A stretch of 64,000 bases of DNA, from the NCBI RefSeq assembly GCF_019059575.1, contig NW_024881521.1:665297-729296 (forward strand). The letters are read 5' to 3'. Within the stretch, counting starts at the first letter, position 1, and every line of letters starts with the position of its first letter. The translations under genes and the position numbers were made by a program. The DNA comes from Amphibalanus amphitrite (lineage: Eukaryota). Positions 19,401 through 60,400 of this stretch are shown piece after piece. The notes below the pieces were generated by a model. It was not told the origin of the DNA. It worked only from the letters and a program-made list of their open reading frames with translations, and did no database searches.

Positions 19401-20623
19401 CCAGACTCGAGGACGAGCTGCAGCGGCACATTGAGCGGTACCGTCCGATGGCACCGCACTACCGCTACCTGCACGCCCCCAGACGCCGATATCTCGCACC
19501 GGACCTCAACGCAGCTGTGATGTACCAGCAGCTTGTGGAGGAAAAGGGCAAGATCTGCTCTTACGAGCGGTTTCGCAAAGCGCTGCGAAGTGCCAACGTG
19601 TCGTTCGCTCGCTTAGGCCAAGAAGAGTGCGAGATATGTACTGCATTTGACCACCACGTGAAAACTTGCTTTGAACATGAGTCGTGCAGCACGTGCCAGG
19701 AACACGCCGCCCACCACGATCGCGCCGAACAGGCTAGGGCAGAGTACGCCCGAGACCGCGAAACCACAGCGTCAGCAGAGTCGCACCTGATTGTTTCCGT
19801 GGACATGATGAGGGTCGCTCTCCTTCCCATCCTCCCTCACAAAGTGTGCGTATTCACCCCGCGACTTGTAACTTACAACGAGACTTTCGCGCCGTTGGGA
19901 GGAAAGGGGGCTGTGTCCGTCTTGTGGCACGAGGGCGTGTCTGGCCGAGATGCACCAGACGTCGCTTCAACATTCATAAAGTTCGTGGAGCTGAACCACA
20001 ACACGAAACAGTTCACCTTCTGGGCAGATAACTGCTCTGCCCAAAACAAAAACTGGACCTTGCTCTCGGCTCTTCAAAATTGTGTCAACAGGAGCGATCT
20101 TGCAGTCAAAACCATCACAGTCAAGTTTTTAGAGAAGGGACATACTAGTATGTCTGCTGATGCGGTGCACCAGGTGGTGAGCAAAAAACTTTCAAAATCT
20201 AGTGTGCGTGTGCAAGACTTTCGGGACTACGTTGTGGCATGTGAGATGGCGGGCTCAGTGCATGTGATGGCGCCGGGAGATTTTTTCGATGTCAGCAGTG
20301 GGGTGAGCGCTACGAAGCTGAAGCGTCTCGCTGATGAGGAGAAGCGACCGCTCCTGCGGGAAATAAAGGTCGTTCAGGTGCGGCGGGACGACGACCGACT
20401 GTACGTGAAGGTTGTCCATGGGCACCCAAAGTGGTCGGCTTACGACCTTTTCAAAACAACTTTTATTCCATGTGAGCAGCCAGAGAGGCGAACGACTCCC
20501 AGGGGGGTTAACAAGGAAAAGTTGGCCAAAATCATCAACAACCTAACACCTCTTATGGATGGTCATAAGACCGCCTTCTGGCTATCCCTCAACGGGACAA
20601 ACGTCCGTGACCTGATGGGATAG
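16470..20623 (+). CDS. Three-exon gene. It has an N-terminal basic/NLS exon of unknown fold, a 26-aa tandem-repeat linker, and a C-terminal HTH + pogo-type DDE_1 transposase domain
   Basis: Exons are 16470..16755 (ATG; donor GAAG|GTAAGG), 16959..17140 (acceptor GCGTAG|; donor CAG|GTGAGA) and 17534..20623 (acceptor TTTTTTTTGTACAG|G; stop TAG). The phases are consistent. The ORF-track 'M' at 17462 is TTG inside the intron. DDE motifs were read directly: SVDMM (pogo NmDEtg), FTFWADNCSAQNKN (pogo lLDNcssH) and FLEKGHTSMSADAVHQ (pogo fLPpNtTsklQPlDqg). Confidence 0.5.
17566..18510 (+). repeat. 78-bp coding minisatellite, ~11 units encoding AAEQGVTPSGGQGTSAAEQGTSAGER, degenerating at the 3' end
   Basis: A direct read shows a near-perfect 78-bp periodicity. 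Units differ by single synonymous or conservative changes (S/F, Q/H) and a few 57-bp short units. Confidence 0.9.
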
Positions 20624-25069: not shown

Positions 25070-27085
25070 ATTGCCCTATTGCCGTCCGCCTAATGTTGCC
25101 ACTGTCGCGGCCGCGGGTCTTCGTGACAAAAATACACGCTGCTCAGAGCCGGGAGCGCCTTGTTTTGTGGGATAGAGGGGTGAGGTTACGAGAGTTTAGG
25201 AGTCAGAGAGGGTGACGAAAATGAGGGGCAAGGGAGGGACAGGGGGCTTGGCTGCAGCTGGTGGTTTTGCCAGTGAATCTGGTTCGGAGGTAGTACGAAC
25301 GCCGATTTCATGCGAAATTGACTGGGCTATCAGGGTGTCCAAATGGAAATCGCTGTCATTAGTACGCTCTGTCTGTACAAACTATTTGTCGTTGATACTC
25401 GGTGCTCAAATATTCGTAACAGCTGTATGTAACGACGATATCGTTCGCGCTCACTTGGAACGCATTGCCCCCTACGTAGCTCCGCGAAAGCTAACGTGGC
25501 TAACGCAAGAGTGGCGCCACCTGTTTGACCAGTCTAGGGTACAAAGCTCTGGTTTACGTCCTCGCCGCTAGTCATTTGATGGATAAACTCAACTGACGTG
25601 AACCAGTGAAGCTTAGCTCCAGTCAGCTTTTGCTCAAGTATGATTGCACTTGTATCATGCTTTGCTCAAGTATTAAAAACCTATTCTGATTCCTTGTCCT
25701 TGCACCTTCGCAGACTCAGACGCCCATTTGGTGCACCATAAGCCAAAGTCTCTTGGCAGACGCCGTGCTTGATTAGTTATCGTGTTTGTATGCTCTTGTC
25801 ACTGCCAATCGGGAAGTTTGCTGTCGCTATTTTTACCATGCACGTCCTGTGGTATCTTCATTGGTCCAGCGACCACCGGTCATGAGTTCGTGAGATAGAT
25901 AACTACTGGTCAGCAGGCCGCCGAATTCTGGCTCGGCTGGTGGCTGGGGATGGGATGAATAGAACCCAGCCCTCAGCTGAAGATCAGAAGCTGAAACAAA
26001 TGCCTGAAGTATAGTTTTATCATGACATTATACACACCTGGCTGGCTGGGTTAGTATTTGGCTGGCTAGAACCTAACCTAACCTACCTGGCATGACGTGG
26101 CTGTCTGTGTATGCCTGATGTCTCATATGCAGTGTGCTGTTATCAGTCGTCAATTTTTTTTAGTGGGAGGGAGAAGTCCCATGTAACTTGTCTCACTGAT
26201 GATTAAGTGCGGTCCTGGTATCGTTCGCAAGGCTCATCAGAATCTCGCTGTTAATAATTGATCCTACATGTATGTATCGAGCAAACGGTCTGGATCATTT
26301 ATACTCTCGTTGCCACAACACTGCATTACTGCTCACAGATCGATGAGGGCCACGCTGTCGAAATCGCACCTCTATGCTGCATATCATGTGACAGGCAATG
26401 CATACCTGCCATCCGATCATGAGTTCTCGGGTTAATGCTAGTGCACCGTTACTGTCGAAATGCATAGATGTGCTTATAAATCGCAGACTGCTCTACTCAG
26501 TTCCCCAGTCATGTGTTTAGGCTTACCCCTCCAATGTCTGTCTCAACATGATTCAGTGTCATCAGGACGCCGCTCCGTTACTCAGAAATAGGTACGTCAT
26601 GGCGGCATTTGGATGATGTCATGCGGTCGCTCGACTGGAAATGGGGAAGATCTGTGACCGCTCTGCGTGTCATATAATTTGTATACACCGGTGACTTTTT
26701 TCGCAAGAACGATGCCAGAGCTGAAAGGTGAGTATCGGGCTGATGGGTTGGGACTTATGAAGCATCGTATGTGACGCATGGACTACTCGTTCGTATGTGA
26801 CCCTAACTGTGGATTGGGAACTCTGTCACGTGGGAAATGGTTTGGTGTTTTAGTTTACAGAGACGAAAGTTTTACGTTTTTACAGCTGTTTTGTTTACAG
26901 GTGTTCAGCCGGAGTAGTGCTGACTGCTGGTGTGTGGAAGGAAGATAAACCTGGTGTGTGGAAGGAAGATAAACAACCGAAGAAGCCGCTACTTTGCTTG
27001 GAAGACGATAGCCATCAGTTGAAGCGTTCGTACTGCGACCTCGGTAAGTAAATGCATCGTGAAAAGTCGTGTTGTTTCACGTGAG

Positions 27086-27218
<133 letters not shown>

Positions 27219-27553
27219 GCTATGCCGAGCTGCATCGATTTTACCGGCGCCCGGCGGGTCGCGACAGGCCCGGCCGCCGTCGCCCGCCGCCGCCAAGGTC
27301 GCGCCATGCACCCACCGGTCACCGGCCCCGCCGCGCGGTGCCTGTCTGTTCAGGCGGCAGCGTCGGCGTCGGTCGAGACGGGCACGTCCTCGGCTCGCTC
27401 AGCGGTGCCGGGTGCGCTGTGACGAATCCCGGCCTAGCTGCCGTGCCGACGGGACCGACCGGCTGTGTGCCTGGAATCGCCCCTGCTCCGGCGGCGGCGC
27501 CGACACGCCCTTTCGAGCGGCCGGCTGGCAGCCACTCGCTCGGCCGCGGCGCC

Positions 27554-32760: not shown

Positions 32761-35700
32761 ATGAGTAAGAAGGACAGTTCCAGTTCGTCGGACAGCCTGT
32801 TCCGCATCCCTCCGCACTACTATGTGCACGTGCTCGATCAGACGGCCAACGTCACCCGGGTCGAGGTCGGACCGCAGACCTTCATCAGGAAGGACAATGA
32901 ACGGTAAGTGGGCGTTCGAGCGGCATCTCAGACAGAGACAGTCGGGAATTGGAGGGATTGAAGGGTGGGGTAGATATTCTCATGAGTATTCTACGAGCAG
33001 TATGTTCCGTAGCGACAATGATGCAAAAGTTGCTCATGAACGTCGGCTAGTTGAAGAGTGTATTTCCCAGTCTTTGTGTCCGCTGTGTGGGCGGGTCGGC
33101 CATATTGCCGGCTCGTCGGAGAGCCGGGGGGTCGCGCCGCGCTGGAGCCGGGACCGGGGATGGGACGCGCCATGTGGCCGCTCTCCGCCACACCCTGGAT
33201 CGATACGGAGAGCGCCCGACATTTCGGCGGCGTGTCCAGGCCCGAGTTCACCCGTCCGACTGGGGATCGGACGCTGCGGCCGGGCGCCATCTGTATGGGA
33301 GATCGGGTACTAGTGCGGCTGGGAGCTGCCAAGCTCTCATGGTGTAGGTCAGGGCAGGATAGGTGGCGCAGCGGGCCGAGGAGCTCGGGCTTCAACTCCC
33401 TCGTTTTGCGGTCACTGTCAATAACGGTGACCGTAGAAGAGCTGTGCTTGTCTAATTCTATCGTATAGTTTCCCGTCTCGGTTTCAACCAAAATGTGATG
33501 ATGTGCTCCTCAAACCCGCTAATGTTTCGAGACTTATTATTGGCCGTCTGTCCTGACCCTGTCCCGCTCCGTCTCCAGGGTCATCGTCGGCCCGAACGCC
33601 ATGGTGGTGGTGCCGCCGCGCCACTACTGTGTCGTCGAGAACCCGGTGGTGCGCGGCGAGGACGGTCAGGTGGTGTGCGACGCCAGCGGCCAGGCGCGCC
33701 TGCTGCACGCCGACACGGAGGTGCGGCTGCACCAGGACCCATTCCCGCTGTACCCGGGCGAGAAGCTCAGCTCGGCCGTGCTGCCGCTGAAGGTGGTCCC
33801 GCCCAACAAGGCGCTCCACCTGCGCGCGCTGCGCGAGTTCAAGGAGGGGGAGGTGGTGCGCTCCGCCGGCGATGAGTGGCTGTTCGGGCCGGGCACCTAC
33901 GTGCCGCGTCCGGAGGTCGAGGAGGTGGCCGATATCAAGGCCATCATCATCGGGCCGAACCAGGCGCTCCGACTGCGGGCACGACTCGAAACCACCGACT
34001 GGAAGGGCCAGAAGCGGGTGGCCGGCGAGGAATGGCTGGTGACCAGAGTCGGCGCCTACATGCCCGGCGTCTACGAGGAGGTGGCCAAGATGGTGAACGC
34101 TCACGTGCTGACGGAGAAGACGGCTCTTCTGGTGCGCGCCACTCGCACCTTCACCGACAGTCGCGGCGTGCGCAGGAAGAACGGCGAGGAGTGGCTGGTG
34201 CGCTTCGACGATATGGAAACGTTCATCCCAGACGTGTACGAGGAGGTGGTGGAGGAACGCGAGGTGACCACCCTCACCAGCCGGCAGTACTGCGTCATCT
34301 GCGACCCGGTCGGGCCGGACGGCAAGCCGCAGCTCGGCCAGCGTCGGCTGGTGCGCGGTGAGAAGTCGTTCTTCCTGCAGCCCGGTGAGACGCTGGAAGA
34401 CGACGTCCGCGACAACTACATCCTCCAGGAGAACGAGGCGCTGGTGCTGCGCGCCGGCGAGGCGTTCACTGACAACACAGTGACGCCGCCGGTGACGCGC
34501 CGGCCCGGAGACCGCTGGATGGTCACCGGGCCCGTGGAGTTCGTGCCGCCCATCGAGGTGGAGGTGGTCGTCCAGCAGACGGCTATCCCGCTCGACCGCA
34601 CCGAGGGTATCTACGTGCGCAACAACCGCACGGGCGAGGTGCGCGCCGTCTGTGGACAGACCTACATGCTCACCCAGGACGAGGAGCTGTGGGAGAAGGA
34701 GCTGCCCGCCAGCGTGGTGGAGCTGCTGCGTACCGACGCGCTGGCCGACCGCGGCGGCTACCGGGAGCTGAGACGGTCAGCGACCAACAAGAGCCATGAC
34801 GAGTTGAGCGACCGCACCCGCGTCATCACCTACCGCGTGCCGCACAACGCAGCCGTTCAGGTCTACGACTACAAGGCGAAGCGGTCGCGCGTTGTGTTCG
34901 GCCCCGACCTGGTGATGCTGGAGCCGGACGAACAGTTCACGCAACTCTCCCTGTCCGGTGGCAAGCCCAAGAAGCCCAACACGATCCGGGCGCTGTCGCT
35001 GCTGCTCGGACCCGACTTCTGCACTGATATTGTCACTGTCGAGACGTCCGACCACGCGCGTCTCTCGCTGCAGATTGCCTACAACTGGCACTTTGATGTC
35101 GGCAACAAGACTGCCGAGGATGCGTGCAAGATCTTCAGCGTGCCTGACTTTGTGGGCGACGCGTGCAAGGCGATCGCGTCTCGTGTGCGCGGCGCCGTGG
35201 CGCAGCGACCATTCGATGACTTCCACAAGAACTCGGCCAAAATCATCCGGCAGTCTGTGTTCGGTCTGGACGACGCTGGCAAGGTGCGCAAACAGTTTGT
35301 GTTTCCGCAGAACAACCTTGTGGTCACCTCGATCGACATCCAGAGTGTGGAGCCGGTGGACCAGCGGACGCGCGACTCGCTCCAGAAGAGCGTCCAGCTG
35401 GCCATCGAGATCACCACCAACGCTCAGGAGGCGGCCGCCAAGCACGAGGCCGAGCGCACGGAACAGGAGGCGCGTGGCCGACTCGAGCGGCAGAAGATTA
35501 AGGACGAGGCGGCCGCGGAGCAGGCGCGTAAGGAGCTCGTCGAGCTGCAGACGGCGTGCGCGGCCATCGAGAGCACCGGTCAGGCCAAGGCCGAGGCGCA
35601 GAGCCGCGCCGAGGCGGCCCGCATCGAGGGAGAGGCGGCCGTGGAGCAGGCCGGCCTGAAGGCGCGCGCCGCCAACATCGAGGCCGAGTCGGAGCTGGAG

Positions 35701-36018
35701 CGGCTGCGCTCGGCGCGCGAGGCCGAGCTCAAGTACACCGAGGAGAGCAACCAGCTGGAGATCGCGCGTTCCAAGGAGATGGCCAACATCGAGATCGAGA
35801 AGTTCCAGCAGATGGTGTCGGCGATGGGCGCCGAGACGTTGAAGGCCATGGCCACTGCTGGCGGCGACCACCAGGTGCGCATGCTGCAGAGTCTGGGCCT
35901 GCAGTCCACGCTCATCACCGACGGACGCACTCCCATCAGCCTGCTGAACACCGCCCAGGGCCTGGTGGGACTGGGCCAGGCGGCCGGGACCGAGTCGGCC
36001 GTCCAGCGGCCGCGCTAG
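32761..36018 (+). CDS. MVP: Major vault protein (MVP), ~860 aa, two coding exons
   Basis: Exons are 32761..32903 (ATG; donor ACG|GTAAGT) and 33579..36018 (acceptor TCTCCAG|G; stop TAG). Exon 1 ([47 protein letters not shown]) matches the MVP N-terminus. Exon 2 carries the MVP repeats (…GEEWLV…), the shoulder domain and the C-terminal coiled coil. Long stretches are near-identical to vertebrate MVP (KSFFLQPGE…, [35 protein letters not shown]…[10 protein letters not shown]…[22 protein letters not shown]). The ORF-track 'M' at 32707 is TTG. Confidence 0.93.
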
Positions 36019-38921: not shown

Positions 38922-41900
38922 TCACAGTGTGACCTGACACCGGTCGAAGGTGGCCACACAGTCGGCTCCGCGCCGTCCCTGCCTCATGGCCAGCAGATGG
39001 TCGGAGGGAGACGCCTCAGGCAGCAGCAGTGACAGCAGCAGGCCGCCCGTATACGTCAGCGCTGAGTGCAGTGCTGACTGCGAGCGGGCCTTCTGATTCA
39101 GCTCACACAGCAGACGGCGACCGCACTGCGAGCCCGCCTCCCTGCGGACAGAACGGTAACTAGTGGTTCATCGAATGACCGCTAGGTGGACAAATACGGT
39201 ACCGCTTCTCGCTGCTAGAAATATACACAAATCGAGCTGTTTCAAGATAATTGCTGGCATGCTATGGTTAAAATTAAATCACCTCTCTATGGGCTCCCTT
39301 GACCCTCCCCTTCCCCGCCCCGGCACAAGATGCAACTACCGAAACCGTGCTCCTCTCGGTAAGCCCCTCGTCTCTCGCTGCCCTCACCCATCCCACTCAC
39401 CCATGCATCCACACTGTGATCATGTTGAGGCCGATCTCCAGCAGACTGTTGATGTACTCGCCGATGATTCCCGGCCCGGGGAGCAGCACCTCCCGGCCTG
39501 CCGACGCTTCCTCATCTTCCAACTCCGCCAGGAGTCTGTCCCAGCGGTCCGGCGGTGTCGCCCATCGCAGCAGCTCGGGACCCAGCAGACGGCCCCAGAG
39601 ACCGCCGGCGGACCGGCCGCCCCCGCCGCCCGCCAGAGCGTCGTTGATGGCGTCGAAAAGGAGGACTCCCAGCGCGAGCACCGCTAGCGTGACCAGCGAG
39701 TTACCGGCGCCAGTTATTCTGTGGGTCAGGTTTCAGTCTGTCAGCGAAGGAGCGCCGATCGCCGATCATCGTCTTGTGAAGTTCATCGAGCTACAGGGTG
39801 TCCCATAAGTTCGTTCTCACATTATGTTTGCATGTGAAACAGAGTACATTGCGTTTTAATATATTTATGACCCCTCAATGTGCTCCCCATTTAATTGGCA
39901 AACACATGAATACATGCTGCGGCATGCCAAACGGCATGTTTGGCTGCATAGCAGGCTTAAAGTTAACCCAGACTGACTTGACATGCGCCGTGAGCTCCTC
40001 GAGGCTGGAACAGCGCTACGCTTCGACGAGCCTCAATTTCAGCATAACCAACAAATTTTTATGAAATTTTGATCCAATGAGGTGCCTGGCATGTGATCTT
40101 GCCACAAACGCCTGTCACAGTCTCCTTGCACCGCTTTTAAGCTTTGCTTGACCTGTGCACTGATGCACTGTCTTGCCTGAAGATGGGCCTACGACCTCCC
40201 GGATGCCATTTTCTCCTCTATAAATATGTTCATACTCGCGGTTCGAGTTCAGCTTGAGGGCTGAAACTCCTCCTAGATGTTCTTGGAAAAACATTCTGTT
40301 TCTCAAAACTGTTTCTGGGTTGCCACTTGCAACTTGGTCAACTCCAGAACGCCTATAACCCCACAACACACTAACACAGTGACCTGGCCTTTTGCATAGG
40401 AACATAACGGGACGAAACGGAGGCCTCCTCCTCCGCCCTTATGGGGTTGTATTCGGGTTTGGACGGGTGTTTCATCTCGAACGTGGACTAGTTAGTCCTG
40501 ATGACCTGGTTGATGTCATCAGCCCTCTGTTTTGTTTAGCCTCAGACATAACGAAACTCATGTTTGGCCATTTTAAGACGTTTTTGACTGTTTTGTGCCC
40601 TCCGTTAAGCAAAGCTTAAGTCACCTTGAGTTATGTACCCCGAAAGAACACTCTTAGACAGCTGGTAATCCATCCTGAAAAGTCTGCTTACCAACTTTGT
40701 AACCCTTTGACCTTTTTGATGCCACTTTGGCGCCACACAGTTTTGGCCACTTGGCTCACTCCTGAGGGCTGACTGGAAAGAGGATAAACTTGTAGTGACT
40801 GACTCCCGACAAATCATCGGCGTCACTTGCTGACTGTGCGTCCAGTTAGCGATGGGCATTGGCTACAGACTGGTAGGCCTCAATCACCCTCAATCGTCGC
40901 GAATGGTCACGTGCTGACTAAATACTGAGACGTACCCGTATCGGAGACCTCTATGTTGCGGCGTTAGCCGTCTCTGTAGGAAGCGGGCTCTATAGTAAAA
41001 ACTATTTTGTCTACAGAAATTAGCTAATGTGGAGCATATTTCTACCAGCCATGGCAACCACGTAAGCTCAGTTACGAACCAATTTCAGCGTGCCTTTAAG
41101 CAAGAGAGCCTAAAAACGTAAAATTTAGGTGAGAACGAACTTATGGGACACCCTGTATATTGGGCAAGGCCCTTGTAAAAAGCGACTATTCTGCTGGCAG
41201 GAGTTATAGTGAAAGCTATTTTTTTAGACAAATCACCCGCTACAAGGCGTCATGACTTAACTAAGCATGTTCTACGGACAGTCTTAAGCAGGCGAGCTCA
41301 GGTTCAGCCTACCTACCTCATTTGCGAGTCCAGCCTCTGTGACAGCTTCTGTCGGACCAGCTGGATGCGAGCGCTGATGTCTTCCAGTCGCTCCGTCAGC
41401 TCGGAGCTGGGTGGTTCAGTGGGGAGCTGTCCAGGGGCCGTCTCACGGCCTCCCCCGCTGCCGGCGGGATTTGGACCGGGCTCTGGCCATGGCTCTGTCT
41501 GAGGATGGATCTCCGGGGGCTCCGTCTGAAGATGGGGCTCTGGGTGGTGTTCCGGCCACTCCTGGAGCTCTGAGTGTTCATTTGGAGGATCGGACTCCGA
41601 CTGGAGCTCCAGGTCGACTCCTGGTCGGCGGTCTATCGGAGTTTCTGGTCGCTCTGTCTGATGCTCCGGGTGCTCCGTCTGAACGTGAAGCTCCGAGTGC
41701 TCCGAGTGCTCTGACCAGTGCTCCGTCTGAAGGCAGTGCTCCGGGTGCTTCGTTTGGTAATTTACCCCGGCGCTCGCCTCCGTGGGTACGGTGACCTCTG
41801 AAACCATTGTGGTCCTCTCTACCTGACCCTCCACGCCTGGCTCAACAGTGCTCGGCGGTTGGCCGGTGGTGACAGAGACAGGCGGCCTCCAGACTGGCCA

Positions 41901-42203
41901 GGCCGTGTGGGAGCGAAGGAGACTGGTCACAACCTGAACCTCTCCGGGAGAATGCAGGCTGCTCGAACCAGGCTTAGAAGGGCTAGATGTTGTTACCGGG
42001 CTAGATCTGGTAGAAGTTGGGTCCTCCGGTCGGAATTTGCTGATTCTGCTGATTCGGAGTGGAGCTCTTCTGAGCCGCACCAGCCGTTGAACGTCACCAC
42101 TTTGAGCACTGACCGTCCCGGCCTCAGCCAGCAGTCCTCCCAGCACTGCTGCCATCAGCAGCACACGAGTCAGCTCCGACATCGACATGATGTTCACTGG
42201 CAC
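38922..42203 (-). CDS. Three-exon gene for a predicted type I membrane protein (~474 aa): signal peptide, His/Glu/Pro-rich repeat ectodomain, one TM helix, cytoplasmic tail
   Basis: Exon 1 is 41317..42203 (ATG; signal MSMSELTRVLLMAAVLGGLLAEAG; repeats EHSEHSELHVQTEHPEHQTERPETP; donor GAG|GTAGGT). Exon 2 is 39401..39718 (acceptor CCCACAG|A; TM LVTLAVLALGVLLF; donor CATGG|GTGAGT). Exon 3 is 38922..39141 (acceptor TGTCCGCAG|G; stop TGA). Both junctions are phase-consistent (AG+A = Arg; GG+G = Gly). The 1.6-kb intron contains a Tc1/mariner-type MITE. Confidence 0.45.
39794..41155. mobile_element. ~1.36-kb TA-flanked MITE with a perfect 27-bp TIR (CAGGGTGTCCCATAAGTTCGTTCTCAC); Tc1/mariner-type
   Basis: The flanks are TA|CAGGGTG…CACCCTG|TA (TA at 39792-93 and 41156-57). 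It has no intact transposase ORF and sits in the intron of the 38922-42203 gene. Confidence 0.65.
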
Positions 42204-47472: not shown

Positions 47473-50400
47473 CTCATACTGAGATTTTTCCGTTATATTG
47501 AAAAGACTCACTTCGCTCGCTGCGCTCGCTCGCTCGTAATAAATGTCTGATAAATTTGCAAATTAACGCACGATCGATGCTCGCTCACCATGCATTTGGC
47601 ATGAGTAATAAATTAAAGTTGTACTCTTTCCTCCGACTAATATCCTATCTAAAGCTCAGCAGCGAAAAGCCAGCACACCGCGCTGGCTCATCCCGGTTTA
47701 TCAACGCAGGAGAACGTCGCCTCACAGCGTCCTCCCGTCCTGGCCTCCAGGACGGCGGCCAGCTTCTCCCACAGAGAGACCTCCGCCGTGGGGATCAGGG
47801 ACGTCCCGACACTGTGAAAGGGGTCTCTGGTCAGTACGGGAACGGGGTCAAACATTAAACAATGCCATCAGCGAGAGATTACATTTTTTTGTCAGCCAAT
47901 TGAAATATTCTTTTCTTCATCCAAAATTATCTCGTGAGAAAATACTTTAATTATTTGGTGTACCTATTCGAGACCGAGTATCGAACGGCTACGTAATAGT
48001 CAGCGCCATGTCCGATATCTTGAATAAACGCTATTTACATGCATACGAGTCATTTGGTATTCCCAGAAACAGCCAAGCGATCAATTGCATAAATTATTGG
48101 ACTTTTCGCTCTAAACAGCTATTTGTTTTTTAGATTGTTCGGCGTCCGCGCGATATAGGGATCATGCTGCGCCGCAATCACGCGTGTAGTGCGGAACAGT
48201 CTACCAGGAAAGAGACGTTAGTTCCTGGAGCATTAACTGACCGCTCGTAGGTATATGTGCCTACCATATATCAAGGGCGCCCTTTAAAAGCACCTACATA
48301 TATTTCCGACATTTTGAATACCTTGATTTATTATTAATCCATTTCCTACTTCAAAATGCATTAATTACCTAAGCATACAATTACCCACTATGCAACCAAT
48401 GCCCTTCGCCCCTCCCCCCCCCCCCCCTCTCGACACAAACATCGGTCTTTTTGTATCGGTTCCGTTTACCGTCTCTCACCTGACGAGGTTATAGATGAGT
48501 CCTTTGTAGACCTCCTGCTGCTGCGCTCGGCTGTTGAGCTGACAGAGCCGGCGGGCCACGCAGCCTGACCTCTCCAGCACCAGCAGCCGGGAGGTGCTCA
48601 GCAGCGCCTCGGCTGCCAGCTCGGGCACCTCGTCCACGCTGCCCAGCAGGAAGGTCAGCTCGGACCAGAGTCCGACCTCTGCGGCACCTCCGTCTCTGCG
48701 GCCTCCGGTGCCGCCGCCCGTACCCGTGCCGCCGCCACCGATCGCCTGCTGTACCAGCAGTAACAGGAACGTGCCGAACGCTAGGAAACTGAGCCCCGTG
48801 AGCAGCATCCCGAAACTGGGGAGCAGCATGCCGCCGCCGCCCCCGTAGCCCATGGACGACCTGGCTGTCGCCGCGAGCAGACGGTTAGCCGGCCGCGCTA
48901 GGGACCGGGGCACGAGCGAGGGCGCCGCAGGGCCGGGCACGGTCAGCGCAGCGAGCATCATTGTCCTCCACAGACGCCGGGATGGAAACTTGGAGGACCT
49001 AGAGGTGATTGCCATAGCTCGCAGCACTGTCACAAGTCAACAAGTCGACTGGCAAGATATGTGCACTTCCATGCGCGCTTACACTTCAACGCATACGAAA
49101 GACCAACTCGCACTTCTTCAATTGAAGCACACACAAGAAACACCCGCTGGGCGGCATGCACAAATCTGACGCGATTGAGCCATGTGCGGCGCGTCCGGGA
49201 CGGCTGCGGCGCACGTCCGTCCCGGCCGTATAGTGCAGGTGAAGTCTCACTCAGGAGCGCACAATTGACAACCGTTCTGGTACGGTGGTGACGAGGCGGA
49301 GCATTGGCGGCGGTGGCAGCGGCAACAACAGGAACGGCGAATGGGCGCACGGCGAACCCAGTCGACCGGGAGTCCCGGTGATGTGATGGCGGTGATGGCG
49401 GTGAAGATCCTCAACTGTGACCGGGTAACGGATGGGCGCAGCGACCACAAGTGGTTGATGCTTGCGTGAAGGCTATATGTAGTGGCAGACGGTTGGAAAC
49501 TCACGTGAGGAAGGTCTCCCATGCGTGCTGGTTTGGAAATTCCAGTGCAAAGAACTTAAAACACAGCTCGGCGCTCGCCCATCGCTCATAGTAGTTTCAC
49601 GGCTTGTTGCGGGTCAAAATGTTTCATTTTAATTGGTAAGCTTTCAATTGGTCCACTTTCAAACATTCATCAAAATTCGATCATCAGCATAATCTATCAA
49701 TTTGTGCGCACACCAGTAGCCGATATTAGCTACGAATGTCGTGCCGTCTTTATAATGCAATGACATATATGTCATTGCCCACCCACCTATATGTGTACAC
49801 ACGCATGTGTGTATAAATAAATGTATGCGTGGGAATGGCGCGATCTGTTGTTTACCGTTTTGTACGCTATACCGCGCCATTCGCAAATGTCCCACAGTCG
49901 ACTGCAAGCCCACCGTCTATGCGTCGTGCATACTTGGTGCATATGCCGCCTACACATCGTGCCTATAGCTTCAGCAATGTCTTATGGCACATACCGGCCC
50001 GGCAGAACGGTCCTCACTGTTAGGCGCTTACGCCAACGACTTCAGAATACCTCACCGCGACGACACGCTACGTTAATTATGGGACATTAGCCAGCATGAC
50101 ACTGGTTCGCTACGCACCGTCCTCGCTCGGGGAATTACGCCAAATTACGGCTGAAAAATGGGGCAAAATGAGCATCACAACAAACTCGAGCCCTCCTTCG
50201 CTATATGGTGTTCCACTCACAGCAGTGTGCTATCATTCCTTATTGCAGTTCGTGATATGGATTCATTGGACAAATAAAATAATGCAGTCAATAACATCAG
50301 AGCTAATGACGTCTTTTCTATCGTTCCATTTTCCTCTCAACAGTCTCAGCCATCATATTCGCATCACGCACGCCCTTGTATGAATGGCATGCGTTTCGTC

Positions 50401-51293
50401 TCGCTCCAGTTTTGTCAAAAGCCATGAAAATTATTGCTGCACTTTTAACGTGTTATGTGAGTCGGCTCTCCGTAATGCACAATAAATAAAGACGTCAAAT
50501 AATAAACGACGTTTATTATATGAACATGCTAGGCCTGTTCTTTCATATAAGCGCATGATCGAACCATTGAAAGAAAGAGAAACATAATAAATTAACATAC
50601 ACTTAATTGAATCATATGTCCCAATGCGTAAAACATTCAACAAGTTAAACACTGTTCAATACACTATTAAAGAGACACGGCACTACCCTCTGCGCTATTT
50701 TTATCGTGGCGTTAAATTCACGCTCAGATAACATAAATACTTGAACGAATTATAAAGACCCTAGGAATTAAGCGATCTGATAATTGCAAAAACATTTAAC
50801 AACATAAAAAGGAGCGTAGTGAATCTATGTCCCGCCATCCCAACTCTACTGTCACAGAGCCGTCTCGTTACATGGATTTGGAGCCACTACCCGAATGTAC
50901 TCCACGAAAAATATGAAGCTAGCCTGTTGACCTAGTCCGTCTCGTCTCCATTTGTCTCTCCATCTGCAGAGCAAGACGTGCAACGACCATGAATCTAATC
51001 TGCAAACAGTAGTCGGAACAAATGCCTTGCAAACAGACAGTCACGGTAAATAGCTCGGTCTGGCCTCAGAGTGCAACAATAACTCCAGACGAGAAACTCA
51101 GACGATTTAAATGACCCTGTTTTTGCAGCGACTGTCGACGGCCCACAGCCAGCCCGTGACCCGGGCCCGCAGTTGGATTTGTAATGCCACTAAACATAGA
51201 TTATATGGTGTCGTTTACACTGAATCAGCTGACGACCAGTTTGTGCAGGCCCGCGCGACTAGATGATCTCTGCCACCTGACCTTGACCTGACC

Positions 51294-54200
51294 TCAGGTC
51301 GGGTCAGCTGAGCAGCTTTCTGCGGCACGAGACCAGCACGAGAGGTCGCTGCTGTCGTCCGTTGCGTCCCATAGCGAAGCTCCCAGACTCAGGAGGTTCC
51401 AGACGGGTGCATCGCTCATGGCTGACTGAACCGCCCTGTAAAACGGTAAAATAAGCTGAACAGGGTCTACGTAATTTAGCGATGGAAAACCGCTAAAGCA
51501 TATGTAAACAAGCTTTCCAAACAAATATCTTTTGTTCCCAGTATTGTATAGGGCAGGCTAACACCGAAAATGATAACATTGATAACGACACAAAATTTGT
51601 TTATTATTAAAACTTAAATACCTCATTGTTAAAATTTATAAATGCTTGCAGTACATATATGAATGCCCTATCACATAAAGTTACATAATAACATTTAGCA
51701 ATAATTCTTTGAAACGCTAATTTTAAATTGAAGTGCCCCATTATACGGTTAGTTAACAATCTCCGGGGGTACTCACAGTACGGCGATGGCGGCGGCGATA
51801 TCGGCTGGGCTGTCGACCCTGGCCCTCAGCTCGTGACACAGCGCCAGCGGGCGGCAGGTCAGGTCATCGGGCAGGGCGGCGACGGAGCCGGACAGCGAGC
51901 GGTAGGTGCCCAACAGGTGACCCACGGTGCTGGAGCCGGAGGGACAGGTCTGGTGGCTAATCTCGTCAGCAACCTCTTCACCACTTCCTTCAGCAAGGTG
52001 GTCAGCGTCTTCAGAAGCGTTTGCTTCGCTTTGGTCAAGATATTTGGTGGTGATGTTGGTGGCATGTTCTTGCTGCTGTCTGCTGGCTCCTTCAGCGTCA
52101 TCAGTCAGGCCGTCTGTACAGCGTTCCGTCAGGATCTCTAGCTCGCGGAGCAGTCTGGATCCTGCGCCCGCCACCTGACCTCCTCCCTCCTGGGTCAGCG
52201 CGTCCACCACCCAGAGGTTTGCGGTGGTGTTACCAAGCACCTCTCCAAGGGCCACGGCACGCTCCGCCGCGAACAGCGCGAACGGAAGAACAACGAGCGC
52301 CGAGAGAAGGCCGTCCACCACCGACGACCTGCCGGTACCGGCGGGCAGACCGGCTCGGTCCTGGAGGATCGTCGAGTCCGGCTCACCCCAGTCCGTGTAT
52401 TGCAGCACCTGACCTCTCTCATCAGCTCTGGTCCTATCCCAGCGCTCATCGCGCCTCAGAACACTTGGCAGAAGTGGGAATCGAATGGAGGGAACTCCCC
52501 AGTTGAGTGACGGGAATGTCGACATGCGCCGGAGGAAGCCTCCTAGCAGACCCATCTGCCAGTCGTACGCGGCGCGGAACGGAGCGCTGAGCCAGTCGAA
52601 CGACGGGAACCGGTGCTCGGCCGGCCTGTGTGGCCTGTGAGGCCCGTGAGGTCCGTGAGGTCTGTGAGGTCTGTGAGGTCTATTGGGTCGGCGAGGATGG
52701 TCAAACTCGTCCAGCGTATCAGTTTCGGCCGGTGCCGTGCCGTAGTCCACTTCTGTGACCGGGTCGAGGGTGTGTGCGTCTAGAGCTGCCTCGCTCACGG
52801 CGCCGAAGCCGGAGACCTGCGGTGTGTAGGTAGTCGGAAACGGCTGGACGTCTATGGGCTCGGAGGGCCGTGTCCCATCGCGACGGTTCGGCGACCCGCG
52901 TAGAGTCGGCAACTGAGAGTTGTAGGGAGGACCGTACATCTGGCTTGGTCGTTTCCTGGGAGCTCCATATGTTTGACTGGGTCTGCTTGGAGTGTTGTAT
53001 GAAGAGCTTGGCTTGGAATTCGGAGCACCGTTAGACGCGCTCGACGTAGACTTCGGTGGTCCGTATGATGCTTTGGGTTTACTCTTTGGTGGTCCATAAG
53101 ATGTCTTGGGTTTTGACTTCGGTGGTCCGTACGAAGCATTTGGTTTGGATTTAGGTGGCCCATACGATGCGTTTGGTTTAGACTTGGGTGGCCCATACGA
53201 TGCATTTGGCTTAGACTTTGGAGGTCCATACGAAGAGTTTGGCTTCGACTTCGGTGACCCATGCGATGGTTTCGGTTTTGCTTTTGGTGGTCCATACGAT
53301 GGTTTTGGTTTTGCCTTTGGTGGCCCGTATGATGGCCTTGGCTTTCGTTTGGGCTTGGGAGGCCCATACGAAGGTCTGGGCCTTCGCTTAGACTTTGGTG
53401 GTCCATATGAAGGTTGAGGCTTTCGCTTGGGTTTCGGAGCTCCGTACGAAGGCCTTGGCCTGGGTGCTCCATATGACGGTCTTGGTCTCTTGCGACGTCG
53501 ATGGGGTCTGTTCCTGTTTCGCCTGACGTGTCGCTCGTACCACCAGGGCGTCCTCCATGTCGTGAGGTACTCCCAGGAGGGGAACAGTCTGCGGATCCTC
53601 CTCCTCATGCCGTTCCAGATGCGGGACATCCGGGATACTATGCCGGCCCTCGGTATGGAGCTGGCTGCGGTCTGGTCTTCGTACCTGTACTCGTTGTCTC
53701 CGGCCGACCACCCGGAGTCGGAGCTAAACGCCGAGTCGTAGTCGCCGAGCTCGAGTCCATTCACTGATTCCAGCGCGTCCTGACTGGATTCGGCCGTCAG
53801 ATCAGGGTCGCCGTAGATGGGGTGCGTGTCGGCCGTCTTTGTGATGACCAGCCACTGAGAGTCGCTGGTGCCCAAGTCACCTTTCGCCGAACCACCCGGA
53901 CCAGGACTGGAGCCGAGCATTGGGGTCCACTGGAGGCTGTCGGCACAGGTACTGCACGGACCCAGTGGGGATCCGTCGTCTGACGGCCCTAAAATGGTGG
54001 AGGCGGTGGCCAGCTGATCCTCCAGGAATGGTTCCGAGCCGGCCTCGTAAGGGGCCTCCAGCCCCGTCTCCGCCACACTGGTGACTTCGGTGACCTCTGT
54101 GGCCTCGGTGCTGACCTCTGTGACGTTCGGACGGCGCAGCATCTCCTCGAAAATCGTGGCGAGCGTGTCTCGAACAGCCTCCTTAAAGCCGGTCCCGTTC

Positions 54201-54700
54201 GTGTCATGTTTCGTGCCGGTATCAACGATGGCTGCGTCACGTGCAGTCAACGAGGTGATGTATGATGTGAGGTTATCCACACGGTGAGCCGACAAGCCGT
54301 CTTTCGGTGGTGTGTTTGGGTATCCTAAACTGTTGACCTGCCTTAGGTCATCCCCTGCCGGCCAGGGCCACCCACGCTCCGGGAGACGGTAGCCGCTGAC
54401 CAGGTCGTCCTGTCCCCGCGCTGTACTCTCTCCAGCTCCGCCATCCTCTGAGATCTCCTCGTCATCCTGCCACTGTATGACCCAGTCTGGACCGGCTGAC
54501 CTGTCCACGGACATGTACCGCGATGGGGACAGGGCCGAGGCCACCGTCAGCGCGGCGGCTGAGCCGGAGCCGTGGTGTAGCAGCAGATCAGACAGGGTGG
54601 CTGGACCGAACACCGTCACCTCGTAACCTGGGCTTAACGTCAGCAGCGACAGCAACAGTGGAAGAACGGCCAGCGGCGATGGCTGCAGAAGGCGCACCAT
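51294..54700 (-). CDS. Secreted Lys/Pro-rich tandem-repeat protein. The main 2.9-kb exon is 974 codons. A possible spliced 49-codon terminal exon lies downstream
   Basis: The main exon is 51777..54700 (ATG at 54700) with a signal peptide MVRLLQPSPLAVLPLLLSLLTLSPG. About 20 units of (P)SYGPPK(S/A)KP(K/N/R) were read in the protein, followed by a (RPH)n tract. The in-frame stop TGA (51773-75) overlaps a consensus donor ACT|GTGAGT. A downstream acceptor CCGTTTTACAG|G opens an in-frame 142-nt exon (51294..51435) ending in TGA. That gives two alternative C-termini (974 aa unspliced, ~1021 aa spliced). Confidence 0.55.
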
Positions 54701-55187
54701 CGTCGAGCTAAAAGGCGAGACAGGTGGAGGGTTTCGCCCTTAAACCACGGAGCTTCACTTTTCACTGGAATTACATACCGATTTTGGTTGCGTCACGATG
54801 TTCAAGGTGACACACAAGGCTCAACCATGGGTCCAGTTTTCGATCCGTTCTTGATTGACTCACACCACGTCAGTGCCCGTCATTCTACACCTTCCAGATA
54901 ACACCGTTCAGTTCAACCTCACTCTCGGCGTCCAACTCAGGAGTCAGCACCGTCGCTGCCGGCGGCAGTGCTGCCTCGACGCGACTGGTCACGGGCCGGG
55001 TCAGGACCCCGGAAGGTCCGGCCTCCGCCCCGCCCCGGCGCCCACACTCGCTACCGCTACCACCACCAGCGGCCCGAGCAGCCATTAGTTCACCCAAACG
55101 CAGCTGGGGCGTGCAACTGGTGCGCCGGTGGCACGGGGCCACGGCACCGGACCAGTGGGACACGGCCGGCCACGGGCGGCGACGGAA

Positions 55188-55275
55188 CCGTCACGAAACG
55201 GTCCGAGCCGGAGCGCAGCGGCACGGAATCGGTCACGGAATCGGTCACGGAACGGTTACGGAAACGGTCACGAAT
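55188..55275. repeat. Degenerate 12-bp tandem repeat (CACGGAATCGGT)n
   Basis: The sequence reads cggcacggaatcggtcacggaatcggtcacggaacggttacggaaacggtcacgaatggtcac. It sits in a GC-rich block with a GC-box CCGCCCCGCCCC at ~55025. Confidence 0.5.
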
Positions 55276-56299
55276 GGTCACCGAGCCGTCATGGAGCCGA
55301 GACGGAAACGGCGAGGAGTCGTCACGAAAGCAACGGCAAGTATACAGTTGTATATTTACACAAGCTGGACAGAGTCACAAGACAGCCTGGTGTATCGTCA
55401 ACATCACGCGAACATAAGACAAAAAGTGAAATAATGAAACGACTGTTACGTTCTGAATGGCATGTCGGAGGCATGCGTGAGCATGAAAATGGTGGATCCT
55501 GGGTGACCTGGATCAACTCACAAACCTCGTGCGTGCGCTGGTCGCACGGTGCATCGAAGATAGCGCTACACCGCTCCATCATTAGAGTCCGAAGAGGCGC
55601 GCCCGAAGGAGGCCATCTGTCTCAGAGACTGTGGCCGCTCGGAGCGGATTGTCACGAGTCGTTAGACGGCGCTCGTCACTCACTAACACGCACTCCGTCA
55701 CAGTGAGTGATTGAAACTCGAAGAAACTCCCCGCGGCGGCCAACAAACGGCCTGGCGCGTGTAAAACAATCACGCAGCTGGCAGCCGTCCGTGGAACATA
55801 AATTGTAGGCGAGCGCTAAACGATCTCTTCTCTAGCTTCTAAGTAGACGCGACCCACATTCATGATAAAAAATGAGCAGCAAAAGCGTTATTTTATTAAA
55901 ACATATGAGAGCAATGCGACGGTAATAGCTGGCTAAATTGCTACCACCCAAATTACATTATTCATCAATCATCATCTGTCCAAAGAACGCATTGCAAATT
56001 GTACACATGTGTTATGCAGTGCACAATGCACATGGTTATAGTTGCAAATTTGAACCCGGCTAATGATAACGCACATAAAATAAATTGCATTTTCTCGCAG
56101 CTTCGATATCCTAATTCTCCGATAAACGGGGTCAGACGTCCTCCAATTTCACTCATTTCCTACCGTTGAAGTCCGGAGTGCGAATAAAACTGTTTGTAGA
56201 TTTTATCATTATATATCTCTGAAACAAGATAAAGCATTGTTTAGCCGATACACTTGGTAAAAAATAACCACTGAAGGGTTTAACGGTCAAGTTCTTTAA

Positions 56300-57476: not shown

Positions 57477-60400
57477 TTAATTTAGTTTATAAATGTGCCT
57501 ATACGTTACTGGGTTCCCGTTTAAAATGTACCTACCTCGAAATGAAAACTGTTACTGCGCTTGCCGCATTAAATACGTTTAAAATGTGTAGAGTCGGCGC
57601 GGTTACAAAGGTTACTTGATAATCTGGAATATCAAACGTCTCTTACAATAATGATAAAATAGCCGAAAAGTGTTTTATTTATAAAATTTAGGTGCATGCA
57701 TCATATATAGCGATGAGATGTTTCCATGAATTATATTGTGAACATTACACAATGCCTCATAATGTTTATAGCTAGCCTAATTGAATCACAAATGTGCTTT
57801 GCCAACCACATCGTACCGTAAGTGCGCGTGCAGGTGGTGTCCGAGCGGCCCCAGCAGAGTGCAGGCCACTCTTAAACCACACTCGGCCTCCTCTCGCTCT
57901 GCCGAGAGTCCTCGGCGGCGGCGTCCTCTCCTCTGAGGACAGCCATTCTCGGAGGACGGAGAGACAGGAGGACTGCCGTGAACAGCGAGCGACCTGCGGC
58001 ACAATGCCGTAACCGGCAGTAGGTATATGTTGATCGGACGAAAGTTATATTGATCGGACTGCTTATTTGCTAATGAACATATCATATACTTATCACAAAA
58101 ACATAAATATAAAATTACTAGATGTAGAATTATTATATAACAAGGATATTATACGGCAACTACTAACATTTCTGTAGGTAACAGTATAAGTAAAGTGAAT
58201 CGAATGAATCGACCGATTAATCGAATCGATTATCGTACCAGCTGCGGACCATGTCCTCCAGCTCCCGCTGCCTCTCCTTCATGTGAGCCCGGAACGACCT
58301 GCGCCGTCTCCGTCTCCGTCTCCGTCTCCTTCGACGGCCCGGCGGCATGATGTTCACCTGTGGGTAGAGAGAGAGAGAGAGAAAAAAAAAAACGGTGCAT
58401 GCAACATGTTCAACTTGCTGCTTTAAATACAAGTGAAGCAGAGTGTCTGCTGGAAGACCTATAATGTGCAGATTAAACGGTTGGACATTTCTTTCTTATC
58501 GTACATCAATAAACAATAATAAACGGTTATACAATAATAAACGATTGATTATCAAACGTTAAACGGTAGAATCCATAAATAATTACACGCCAAATTGATG
58601 GTTTTTCACAAAACTTCATAATTATTAAGCATGTAAGGTGCTTATCCAAAAATTCGAATGAAATTGCCTCTAATATATCATATAAAATATATTTCCAAAA
58701 TATATTTGATGTAGGTACTTTGTTACTTTATTATTCGAAGGACATCCTTACCTGATTTGCGTTGTTGCTGTTCAAGTTGGCGTTCACATTATTATTGTCC
58801 AGATTGTTGTTATTATTATTGTTGTTGTTATTATTGTTATTATTGATGTTGTTATTGATATTCAACACCAGCGTCATTATGCCCACGACGAAGCTGAGAT
58901 AGTTGAAGCTGTTGAATCCGGACAGAATTCCGCCTGTGTTCACACACGGTCGTTTCTTGTTGTTTTTCTTCATGTAGAGGACGGGCACGCGGCGCCGGGT
59001 CCTCGAGCGCAGCCCGAGCCTCTCTGTCGCTGTGGTGGAGTTGGTCACAGGTGCTCCGACCTGCCGAGGCTCCTGCAGCTCTCCAGGGGATGTAAGGGAC
59101 CGGTCAGGGATCAGACCCTGCTCCTCCCAGACTGCAAGGTGCCGGGACAGCTCCGTTTCGAGCTGCATCTCCAAATTTGTCACTGACCCACCTACCTCAG
59201 CCACTGCTGCAGATCCACACACTGTCCACTTTGTCCACAACGCCCACAATGTCCACACTGGCCACACCGCCCACATCCCGCTGGAACTGCGGACCGACAG
59301 ACCATGCATGAACCTCGATCCACCGCCGCCAATAATCGGTCACCGAATCGCTGAACGCCTCTGAGCTACACCCGACACAGCCAGCGGGCATGGCAGCCGG
59401 CTCGACTCTCAAGGAGTGCTGACAGCTCGGCTCGCCGGAGTTGCAGTCCGCTAAACTCGGCACCACGCTAACGGTGATGTTCGCAGACCGTTCTATAGAC
59501 CTGGGTGTTACGAGTGGTGTGCGCCTACTCAACGGTATTTAGGCATAGCGTACCTAACCGTTCACATCCTGCAGCGATGCTGCATATACCTACCGGAGAT
59601 TGACGATTGTAGTGACTCCGTTCACGAGGAGAACTGGAGAAGATGGATTCAGGATTAGGTAAGCGGAACATAGCGGCACAACGATTATGTTCTCTAGTTC
59701 ACGCATGGTTAGACGGTCACCACCTGGGTCCTGGGCTGTTAGACGGATATATAGAATAAAACTAGGACAGTGAGCTCAGCGGTGACCGGACCCGTGCTAG
59801 ACCGGGCTCTGCTCGGCAGGACCGGGGCTAACCTTCCCCTATGTGAGCTCCACGAAAAAAAAAAACTGCGAACTGGCCCATGAGTGACAGTGTCTCTGTA
59901 ACGGAACCGAGCGATTACCCGCTGTATGGAAGGCATGGGTTCAGACTTCAGACACTATTGGGCCGGACCGTTTCAGACCGCGGGCCCGGCCCGTAAGCGA
60001 ACAGGTCATGGTCTGATTCTGCCCACGACCGTGAGGACCGGGCCAGCAAGGTCTCAGTCCTCACCGATTGTAGATAACCATACCGGTCAACGGCAAAACA
60101 GACCATCTCTGACTGGGCCTTATCTGACCAATGTATCTCAATAAAAGATTGTGGCTACCGCCTACCACACCGCATACGGCACAGGAACTTCGCTAACTAA
60201 GCGTGCCCTTATCGGCCTCTCTAAACAGACACTCTAGTCTCTGGCCAATATAACCGATCATCTCTGACTTAAGCACTGTAAGTGCAAACGAAAGAGAGAA
60301 GTCGGCACGGTGAGCCTTTCTGATGATGCTCCTATTGAATCGCATAATGCTGGGGACGAGTCCAGCATTATCCGCATAATGCTGGACTGAATAGATGCGC

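Follow-up and report, generated by a model that had tools for sequence, protein, structure and literature searches.

The window analysed here is a stretch of 64,000 nucleotides from the barnacle Amphibalanus amphitrite (contig NW_024881521.1, positions 665,297 to 729,296), and the subject of this report is the gene LOC122393962 on its minus strand. The product of this gene, 1021 residues long, joins the arthropod proteins that carry tandem PSYGPP-type repeats of the Pfam family PF16058, and combines such repeats with flanking domains specific to barnacles. The gene has two coding exons, and it is highly probable that the spliced product is the functional one. Judging from its sequence, the protein may be a secreted structural component of an extracellular matrix or a cuticle, in which the Tyr/Lys repeat would serve as a module for oxidative cross-linking and for the binding of polyanions. 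This reading is put forward tentatively, with a probability of about 0.45.

The coding sequence starts with the ATG at 54700-54698 and continues as an open reading frame (ORF) of 975 codons on the minus strand (54700..51773). The length of this ORF, together with the repeat array within it, is far past chance expectation. The GC content of the coding sequence is ~58-60%, compared with 32% in the intron. Upon splicing of the last intron, the product matches XP_043230385.1/XP_043246407.1, described as "uncharacterized protein LOC122393962 / LOC122385866" of A. amphitrite, with 100% identity from end to end, and the gene is already annotated in RefSeq though uncharacterised. The ORF coordinates and splice-site strings given by a first-pass annotation of this DNA are all correct, and the splice that it proposed is exactly that of the RefSeq model. 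A tblastn search found no paralogues of the protein in the remainder of the window. The two RefSeq loci that carry the same 1021-residue protein (LOC122393962 and LOC122385866) lie on two A. amphitrite contigs and reflect a recent duplication or, alternatively, a haplotype that was not collapsed. Upstream of the ATG, by ~520 nt, a tandem repeat of CACGGAATCGGT (5.2 copies, 55222-55281) and, close to it, a repeat of CACGGCCGGC (55161-55185) are likely to belong to the promoter or the 5' untranslated region of the gene.

Two orthologous barnacle sequences were compared with the A. amphitrite gene. One is a locus in the ENA assembly ERZ25068762 (L001), whose protein P0003 is ~50% identical to the A. 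amphitrite protein. The other (P0004) is found on the Tara Oceans metagenome scaffold TARA_SAMEA6022205 (L002, 4390-4435), which presumably derives from larval or pelagic barnacle DNA. In a word-indexed search, four barnacle entries cover the flanks of the repeats, the other matches being at the level of the repeats (psyllid, crab and unnamed arthropod or metagenome proteins), and the same kind of search with the repeat tract alone added three fragments. The C-domain (aa 695-975) was also the query of an exhaustive phmmer search against 1.84 billion representative proteins, and only three barnacle proteins came back. To the extent that sequence similarity can be detected, the flanking domains are therefore restricted to barnacles. 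Repeats of this type occur widely among arthropods.

The mature protein has a computed mass of 107.8 kDa and a pI of 6.95. Its charge is arranged in alternating blocks (Table 1): the acidic N-terminal region is followed by the Arg linker, the polycationic repeats, the acidic spacer, the (R/G)PH tract and the acidic, Cys-containing C-domain. The signal peptide recognized by the first-pass annotation is supported by rule-based criteria, and a similar layout is common to the two orthologues in the alignment (LSHA·HEV and LICA·YNV, where the dot marks the putative cleavage site). The protein is thus likely to be cleaved before YEV and secreted. The (RPH/GPH)n tract was said to follow the repeats. 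The tract does exist, but ~75 residues, including the acidic spacer, separate it from them. It consists of seven triplets, is detected by Tandem Repeats Finder as an array with a period of 9 nt at 52626-52681, and is found in both orthologues with variable length. The most hydrophobic segment, aa 794-812, could either be buried as a helix or span a membrane. Pfam found no family in the N- and C-terminal flanking regions, and a scan of the whole protein at E <= 1 gave only PF16058 and a spurious match to TetR_C.

Table 1. Features of LOC122393962 and its product (a dot in a sequence marks a putative cleavage site)
Feature	Residues	Positions in the window	Strand	Remarks
Signal-peptide-like N-terminus	1-25	54626..54700	-	MVRLLQPSPLAVLPLLLSLLTLSPG·YEV; rule-based: basic n-region, Kyte-Doolittle core 1.76, small residues at -3/-1
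Acidic N-terminal region	26-355	53636..54625	-	pI 4.09; conserved motifs; conserved CxxC (C249, C252)
Arg/Trp-rich basic linker	356-408	53477..53635	-	pI 12; RIWNGMRRRIRRLFPSWEYLTTWRTPWW...; highly conserved
Tandem repeat tract	409-593	52922..53476	-	pI 10.8; ~17 units; Tandem Repeats Finder, unit parse, Pfam PF16058
Acidic spacer	594-664		-	pI 4.2
(R/G)-P-H/N triplet tract	671-693	52622..52690	-	RPN RPH RPH RPH GPH GPH RPH RP; block aa 665-692 pI 12
C-region	693-1021		-	acidic, pI 4.5; six conserved Cys, two of them in the last exon
Most hydrophobic segment	794-812	52265..52321	-	VVDGLLSALVVLPFALFAA; Kyte-Doolittle 2.23; nearly invariant in orthologues
Coding exon 1		51777..54700	-	last two bases CT are the first two of codon 975; ORF call and spliced product identical to RefSeq XP_043230385.1
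Last intron		51436..51776	-	341 nt, phase 2, 32% GC, GTGAGT...TTTTACAG; in-frame TGA 51775-51773; one AATAAA 51605-51600
Last coding exon		51294..51435	-	142 nt: third base of codon 975, 46 codons (AVQSAMSDAPVWNLLSLGASLWDATDDSSDLSCWSRAAESCSADPT) and TGA at 51296-51294; two conserved Cys
Candidate poly(A) signal		50512..50517	-	first AATAAA past the final stop, 777 nt downstream

The parse of the repeat tract gives, in order, units of 9, 13, 13 and 13 residues, ten units of 11, and then units of 10, 11 and 13. Twelve of these ~17 units carry SYG[AP]P, and the general unit can be written as SYG(P/A)PK(S/A)KP(K/N)x. The dominant unit is an undecapeptide, SYGPPKSKPNA or SYGPPKAKPKP, and Tandem Repeats Finder reports periods of 33 and 39 nt at 53047-53461. 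Tandem Tyr/Lys/Pro repeats had been correctly perceived in the first-pass annotation, but its ~20 decapeptides are in fact ~17 units, mainly of 11 and 13 residues, with a single degenerate unit of 10. The tract is composed of 28% Pro, 18% Ser, 17% Lys and 9% Tyr, with one Tyr per unit, and it makes up 185 of the 1021 residues (18%).

The differences among eight of the 11-residue units are distributed over codon positions 1, 2 and 3 as 52, 7 and 167. In the comparison with the orthologue, the proportions of nonsynonymous and synonymous differences in the tract are 0.164 (pN) and 0.748 (pS), and all three species keep the tract in frame, with a copy number that varies from ~17 to >40 units. By these sequence comparisons the repeat tract is coding and is under strong purifying selection. 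The same comparative evidence argues against the possibility that the tract is an annotation artefact, though it is deleted in an older annotation of the genome.

This older model of the same locus, KAF0307362.1 (FJT64_002293, 739 aa), removes aa 109-157 and aa 340-687, and with the latter the whole repeat tract, as introns. It also leaves out the 47-codon last exon, splicing the donor at 51776 onto exons that belong to the downstream gene (48892-48482 and 47813-47691). The acceptor used for this fusion (near 48857) is located in GC-rich coding sequence with no pyrimidine tract, within a gene that starts from an ATG of its own. As the skipped segments are kept in frame across three species, show conservation and evolve under purifying selection, and the acceptor is a poor one within a separate gene, the model is judged to be an artefact and was rejected. 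The loss of the repeats and of a second conserved segment, and the fusion to the neighbour, make KAF0307362.1 wrong at this locus, which matters for proteomic searches made against it.

The family of the repeats can be recognized from PF16058 ("Mucin-like"), which matches aa 516-592 with 60.5 bits (E = 2.1e-16, gathering threshold 28.7) and the two orthologues with 119.9 and 30.2 bits. The tandem motif xPSYG(P/A)P is shared with crab, psyllid and unnamed arthropod proteins, some of which also have a unit of 11 residues, e.g. SYGAPQAKPQD in P0010. One of the PSYGPP-type repeat matches carries, in addition, the Pfam domain DUF243, which we take to be the domain of Tweedle cuticular proteins. The barnacle protein differs from other members of PF16058, a family with no established function, in its barnacle-only flanks and in its unusually Lys-rich, polycationic units.

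The consensus repeats of resilin (AQTPSSQYGAP in A. gambiae and GGRPSDSYGAPGGGN in D. melanogaster) and of mussel foot protein-1 (fp-1; AKPSYPPTYK) are available for comparison (PMC9999432). The comparisons employed concatenated consensus repeats, which inflate E-values, so that the contrast between the two is what counts. The alignment of the tract with (AQTPSSQYGAP)10 is in register: it covers 108 aa with a single gap, at 43% identity and a composition-adjusted E of 1e-20. With (AKPSYPPTYK)12 the unadjusted alignment contains 33 gaps in 140 columns, and composition-adjusted BLASTP finds 31 aa at E = 0.37. At this level the motif and the period of the tract match the arthropod resilin/PF16058 type and not the mussel decapeptide. 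The likeness to fp-1-type decapeptides, which the first-pass annotation had emphasised, does not survive the comparison, given the period of 11 or 13 residues, the short fp-1 alignment, the register of the resilin repeat and the match to PF16058.

With resilin the tract shares the P-x-x-x-Y-G-(A/P)-P core, the 11-residue period of the mosquito repeat, one Tyr per unit and a Pro-rich, probably disordered context. Unlike resilin, it contains 17% Lys and is poor in Gly, and the repeats form only a minority of the protein. As the protein carries no Rebers-Riddiford chitin-binding domain, it is not a resilin. With fp-1 the protein has in common a secreted nature, an origin in a sessile marine invertebrate, and Lys/Pro/Tyr/Ser-rich polycationic tandem repeats with KPSY and PP elements. 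In fp-1, however, the period is a decapeptide with two Tyr per unit and the repeats constitute nearly the whole of a strongly basic protein, whereas here the units of 11 or 13 residues have one Tyr each and make up 18% of a protein with a pI of 6.95. As far as the sequences go, the analogy with the mussel adhesive is compositional only.

These properties make it possible to outline how a matrix or cuticle protein of this kind could work. The Pro-rich repeat would form an extended, disordered module presenting one Tyr per 11 residues and 2-3 Lys per unit. Such a module could be a substrate for oxidative cross-linking and, at the same time, a stretch that binds polyanions. The chemistry might be a peroxidase-type formation of di-tyrosine, as in resilin, Lys links made by a lysyl oxidase, or quinone adducts. 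The Tyr residues of resilin do form di-tyrosine cross-links (PMC9999432), and both peroxidases and lysyl oxidases are present in the adhesive and cuticle material of barnacles (PMC8371367). The conserved flanking domains would mediate a barnacle-specific assembly, and the alternation of acidic and basic blocks could favour self-association.

Several observations weigh against assigning the protein to a matrix or cuticle. PF16058 is essentially a model of a low-complexity repeat, and membership in it says little about function. No other characterised domain was found by Pfam, and the full-protein scan contains neither the Rebers-Riddiford (R&R) chitin-binding domain PF00379 nor any other chitin-binding family. 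The resemblance to resilin concerns the motif and the period only, on a concatenated consensus, and is no demonstration of homology. An AlphaFold2 model calculated from the three-sequence alignment has a mean predicted local distance difference test score (pLDDT) of 33.8 with no residue above 70, and contains a low-confidence helix at 793-825. Its low pLDDT suggests compatibility with extensive disorder, but the model is uninformative. The accessions of the protein were not found named in the main text of the searchable literature. As for the gene model, the intronic AATAAA at 51605 leaves room, in principle, for a truncated isoform of A. amphitrite produced by intron retention or intronic polyadenylation.

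An adhesive role can be imagined in two forms. In the first, the protein would be an undescribed barnacle-specific component of the interface between adhesive and cuticle, and its polycationic, resilin-like array of Tyr/Lys 11-mers would be a natural substrate of the adhesive peroxidases and lysyl oxidases. It may have been overlooked because KAF0307362.1 deletes the repeats and fuses the neighbouring gene. This proposal is unlikely to be correct, but if it were, the protein would provide the oxidative cross-linking enzymes known from the interface with the substrate that has been missing, and its repeat, as a natural variant of the resilin type that is polycationic, would interest biomaterials research.

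In the second form, the protein would be a component of the adult or cyprid cement acting in the manner of fp-1: Lys and Tyr residues (the latter possibly as 3,4-dihydroxyphenylalanine, DOPA) in decapeptide-like repeats would displace water and ions from the surface and then cure oxidatively. A. amphitrite is permanently attached, the composition of the repeats resembles that of AKPSYPPTYK (PMC9999432), and oxidases occur at the barnacle adhesive interface (PMC8371367). A precedent for the proposed cross-linking of Lys is the Lys-rich, barnacle-specific, secreted protein lcp2_57k_2F5 of the Megabalanus rosa cyprid cement gland, which is a substrate of lysyl oxidase in vitro (PMC8639568). Furthermore, the adhesive proteome paper cites the KAF accession series, and since KAF0307362.1 lacks the repeats, peptides from them may have been invisible there. 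The period of 11 or 13 instead of 10 residues, the negligible composition-adjusted similarity to fp-1, the small share of the repeats and the near-neutral mature protein all argue in the opposite direction, and barnacle adhesion has been described as distinct from DOPA-based systems (PMC8371367). Neither do the proteomic sources speak for cement: besides the missing accession in the main text of searchable papers, strings of the SYGPPK type are absent from the supplements of So et al. 2016 and of the M. volcano cyprid gland study.

The protein also cannot be equated with a named cement protein. The word-indexed search and the exhaustive phmmer search with the C-domain showed no similarity to CP19/20/34/43/52/57/100/105, Mr-lcp1-122k, lcp2_57k or lcp3_36k, and yielded only unnamed barnacle orthologues or alternative models. 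Mr-lcp1-122k was ruled out by its 1082 residues, pI of 11.67 and different N-terminal peptide. The same applies to lcp2_57k, which differs in size, pI, Cys count and charge layout: it has 548 aa, a pI of 10.9, 12 Cys and evenly spread charges, whereas the protein described here has 1021 aa, is near-neutral and carries its charges in blocks. A function in cement is unlikely.

An anchor in the membrane is compatible with any of the other readings. The protein would then be a type I surface protein that spans the membrane with aa 794-812 and displays its repeats outside the cell. The mean Kyte-Doolittle value of this segment over 19 residues is the maximum of the whole protein, and the segment is nearly invariant in the three species. 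Its uncharged core, however, is only ~16 residues long (GLLSALVVLPFALFAA) and is flanked by D796 and E813, and no basic cluster follows it. Downstream of it lie three N-x-S/T sequons and six conserved Cys, which are easier to reconcile with a position outside the cell, and the low-confidence model places the segment inside the long helix. The membrane anchor is, accordingly, improbable.

Another possibility to consider is that the protein belongs to the organic matrix of the calcified shell plates. Its acidic domains, rich in Asp, Glu and Ser, would then bind to calcite or Ca2+, and its basic repeat to chitin or acidic polymers. The large acidic blocks (pI 4.1, 4.2 and 4.5) that flank the basic ones, the secreted-type architecture with conserved Cys pairs, and the restriction of the gene to barnacles, which calcify, agree with such a function. 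The acidic regions are nevertheless of moderate character, with ~9% Asp and no poly-Asp or poly-Ser runs, and neither the paper on the A. amphitrite plate-matrix proteome nor any other searchable paper names the accession in its main text. A role in the shell plates seems decidedly unlikely, and a structural protein of an extracellular matrix or cuticle is preferred.

The C-terminus of the protein deserves separate attention, as the first-pass annotation had drawn two C-termini from a stop codon that doubles as a splice donor. Its description of the sequence was accurate. The terminal TGA indeed lies inside ACT·GTGAGT (the dot now marking the exon-intron junction), at 51775-51773, where the ORF ends as GTA CT·G TGA GT and the GTGAGT donor, which starts at 51776, divides codon 975 between its second and third bases. 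The AT-rich interval of ~340 bp is the 341-nt intron with 32% GC, ending in TTTTACAG, and the in-frame 47-codon exon is present at 51435..51294 and is supported by a conserved exon in the ENA barnacle. Any phase-2 intron that opens with GTGAGT or GTAAGT, however, reads xxG TGA or xxG TAA when unspliced. Since the combination of phase 2 with GTGAGT always gives it, the TGA is automatic and carries no information. It is a by-product of the donor of an ordinary conserved phase-2 intron. What had been presented as noteworthy is trivial for phase-2 GTRAGT introns, and it recurs in both orthologous loci.

In L001 the ORF has the same ...AVL end with a CT·GTGAGT donor, and the position and the phase of the intron are the same. 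The L001 intron is AT-rich, ~369 nt long, and ends with TTTGCAG. The last exon (14003-14147) has 48 codons (AAQSASSEDPLWSLLSLAASFWSATGDESGDQPCRTYTADSCPADPT followed by the stop) and is 57% identical in amino acid sequence to its A. amphitrite counterpart, with a one-codon frame-preserving indel, both Cys kept and the same ADPT-stop end. In L002 the ORF ends with CCA·GTAAGA at a different position, again a phase-2 donor that reads TAA. The variable acidic part of its C-domain may thus be interrupted by an additional phase-2 intron, one that A. amphitrite lacks.

An open frame of 47 codons is by itself weak evidence, as ~0.1 of random frames of this length, (61/64)^47, stay open. The comparison with L001 is more informative. 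Nei-Gojobori estimates for the last exon give a nonsynonymous distance (dN) of 0.264 and a synonymous distance (dS) of 0.758, or a dN/dS of ~0.35 (for exon 1, dN is 0.325 and dS 1.29), and nucleotide identity is 72% in the last exon against 44% in the intron. Because the L001 exon is conserved in this way, the last exon is coding and the intron is conserved in position and phase. As conservation and purifying selection are seen in the last exon, and the intron is not conserved, the spliced C-terminus is the functional one, and the claim of two C-termini is not upheld. The final stop is followed by the first AATAAA at 777 nt in A. amphitrite and at 846 nt in L001.

A regulated switch, in which intron retention or intronic polyadenylation would give a functional 975-residue isoform without the last 46 residues and two Cys beside the 1021-residue form, could draw on the TGA directly past the exon/intron junction, on the single AATAAA of the intron (171 nt inside it, at 51605) and on the expectation that a message retaining the last intron would be no obvious target of nonsense-mediated decay, but it is very unlikely in view of the automatic origin of the stop, the lack of both AATAAA and ATTAAA in the L001 intron, the contrast between the conserved exon with its two Cys and the diverged intron, and the spliced form annotated by RefSeq.

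The product of the next gene downstream (47691-49033, minus strand) is rich in Gly and has a hydrophobic segment as well as a C-terminal C-x5-C ... C-x5-C module. This product has a sub-threshold match to DM4/DM12 (PF07841), with 12.7-13.4 bits against a threshold of 22 bits. The last 75 residues of the repeat protein have a C-x5-C ... C-x7-C arrangement and match the neighbour weakly (E = 0.022 in a single comparison, 11/38 identities). DM4/DM12 was also considered for this C-terminal four-Cys module of the repeat protein and rejected, as Pfam gives no match in the last 103 aa of the protein or of the orthologue.

Several other features of the window can be described briefly. A single-exon ORF of 805 aa on the plus strand (33601-36018) covers most of the major vault protein (MVP), with Vault repeat and MVP shoulder domains (Pfam E 1e-63 to 1e-18). 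Also on the plus strand, an ORF of 1053 aa (17462-20623) has ~12 N-terminal repeats of the AEQGVTPSGGQGTSAAEQGTSAGER type and a C-terminal match to DUF7869 (29.7 bits), and is probably derived from a transposable element. The 296-aa ORF at 41313-42203 on the minus strand has a signal-peptide-like start (…LLMAAVLGGLLAEAGTVSAQ) and His/Glu/Pro-rich repeats of the TEHPEH type, with no Pfam family, and may encode a lineage-specific secreted protein. Simple-sequence stretches are found at 27059-27230 and 58731-59309, one being a long repeat of the (CT/TC)n type, translated as (SL)n, and the other an ORF with a poly-Asn run.

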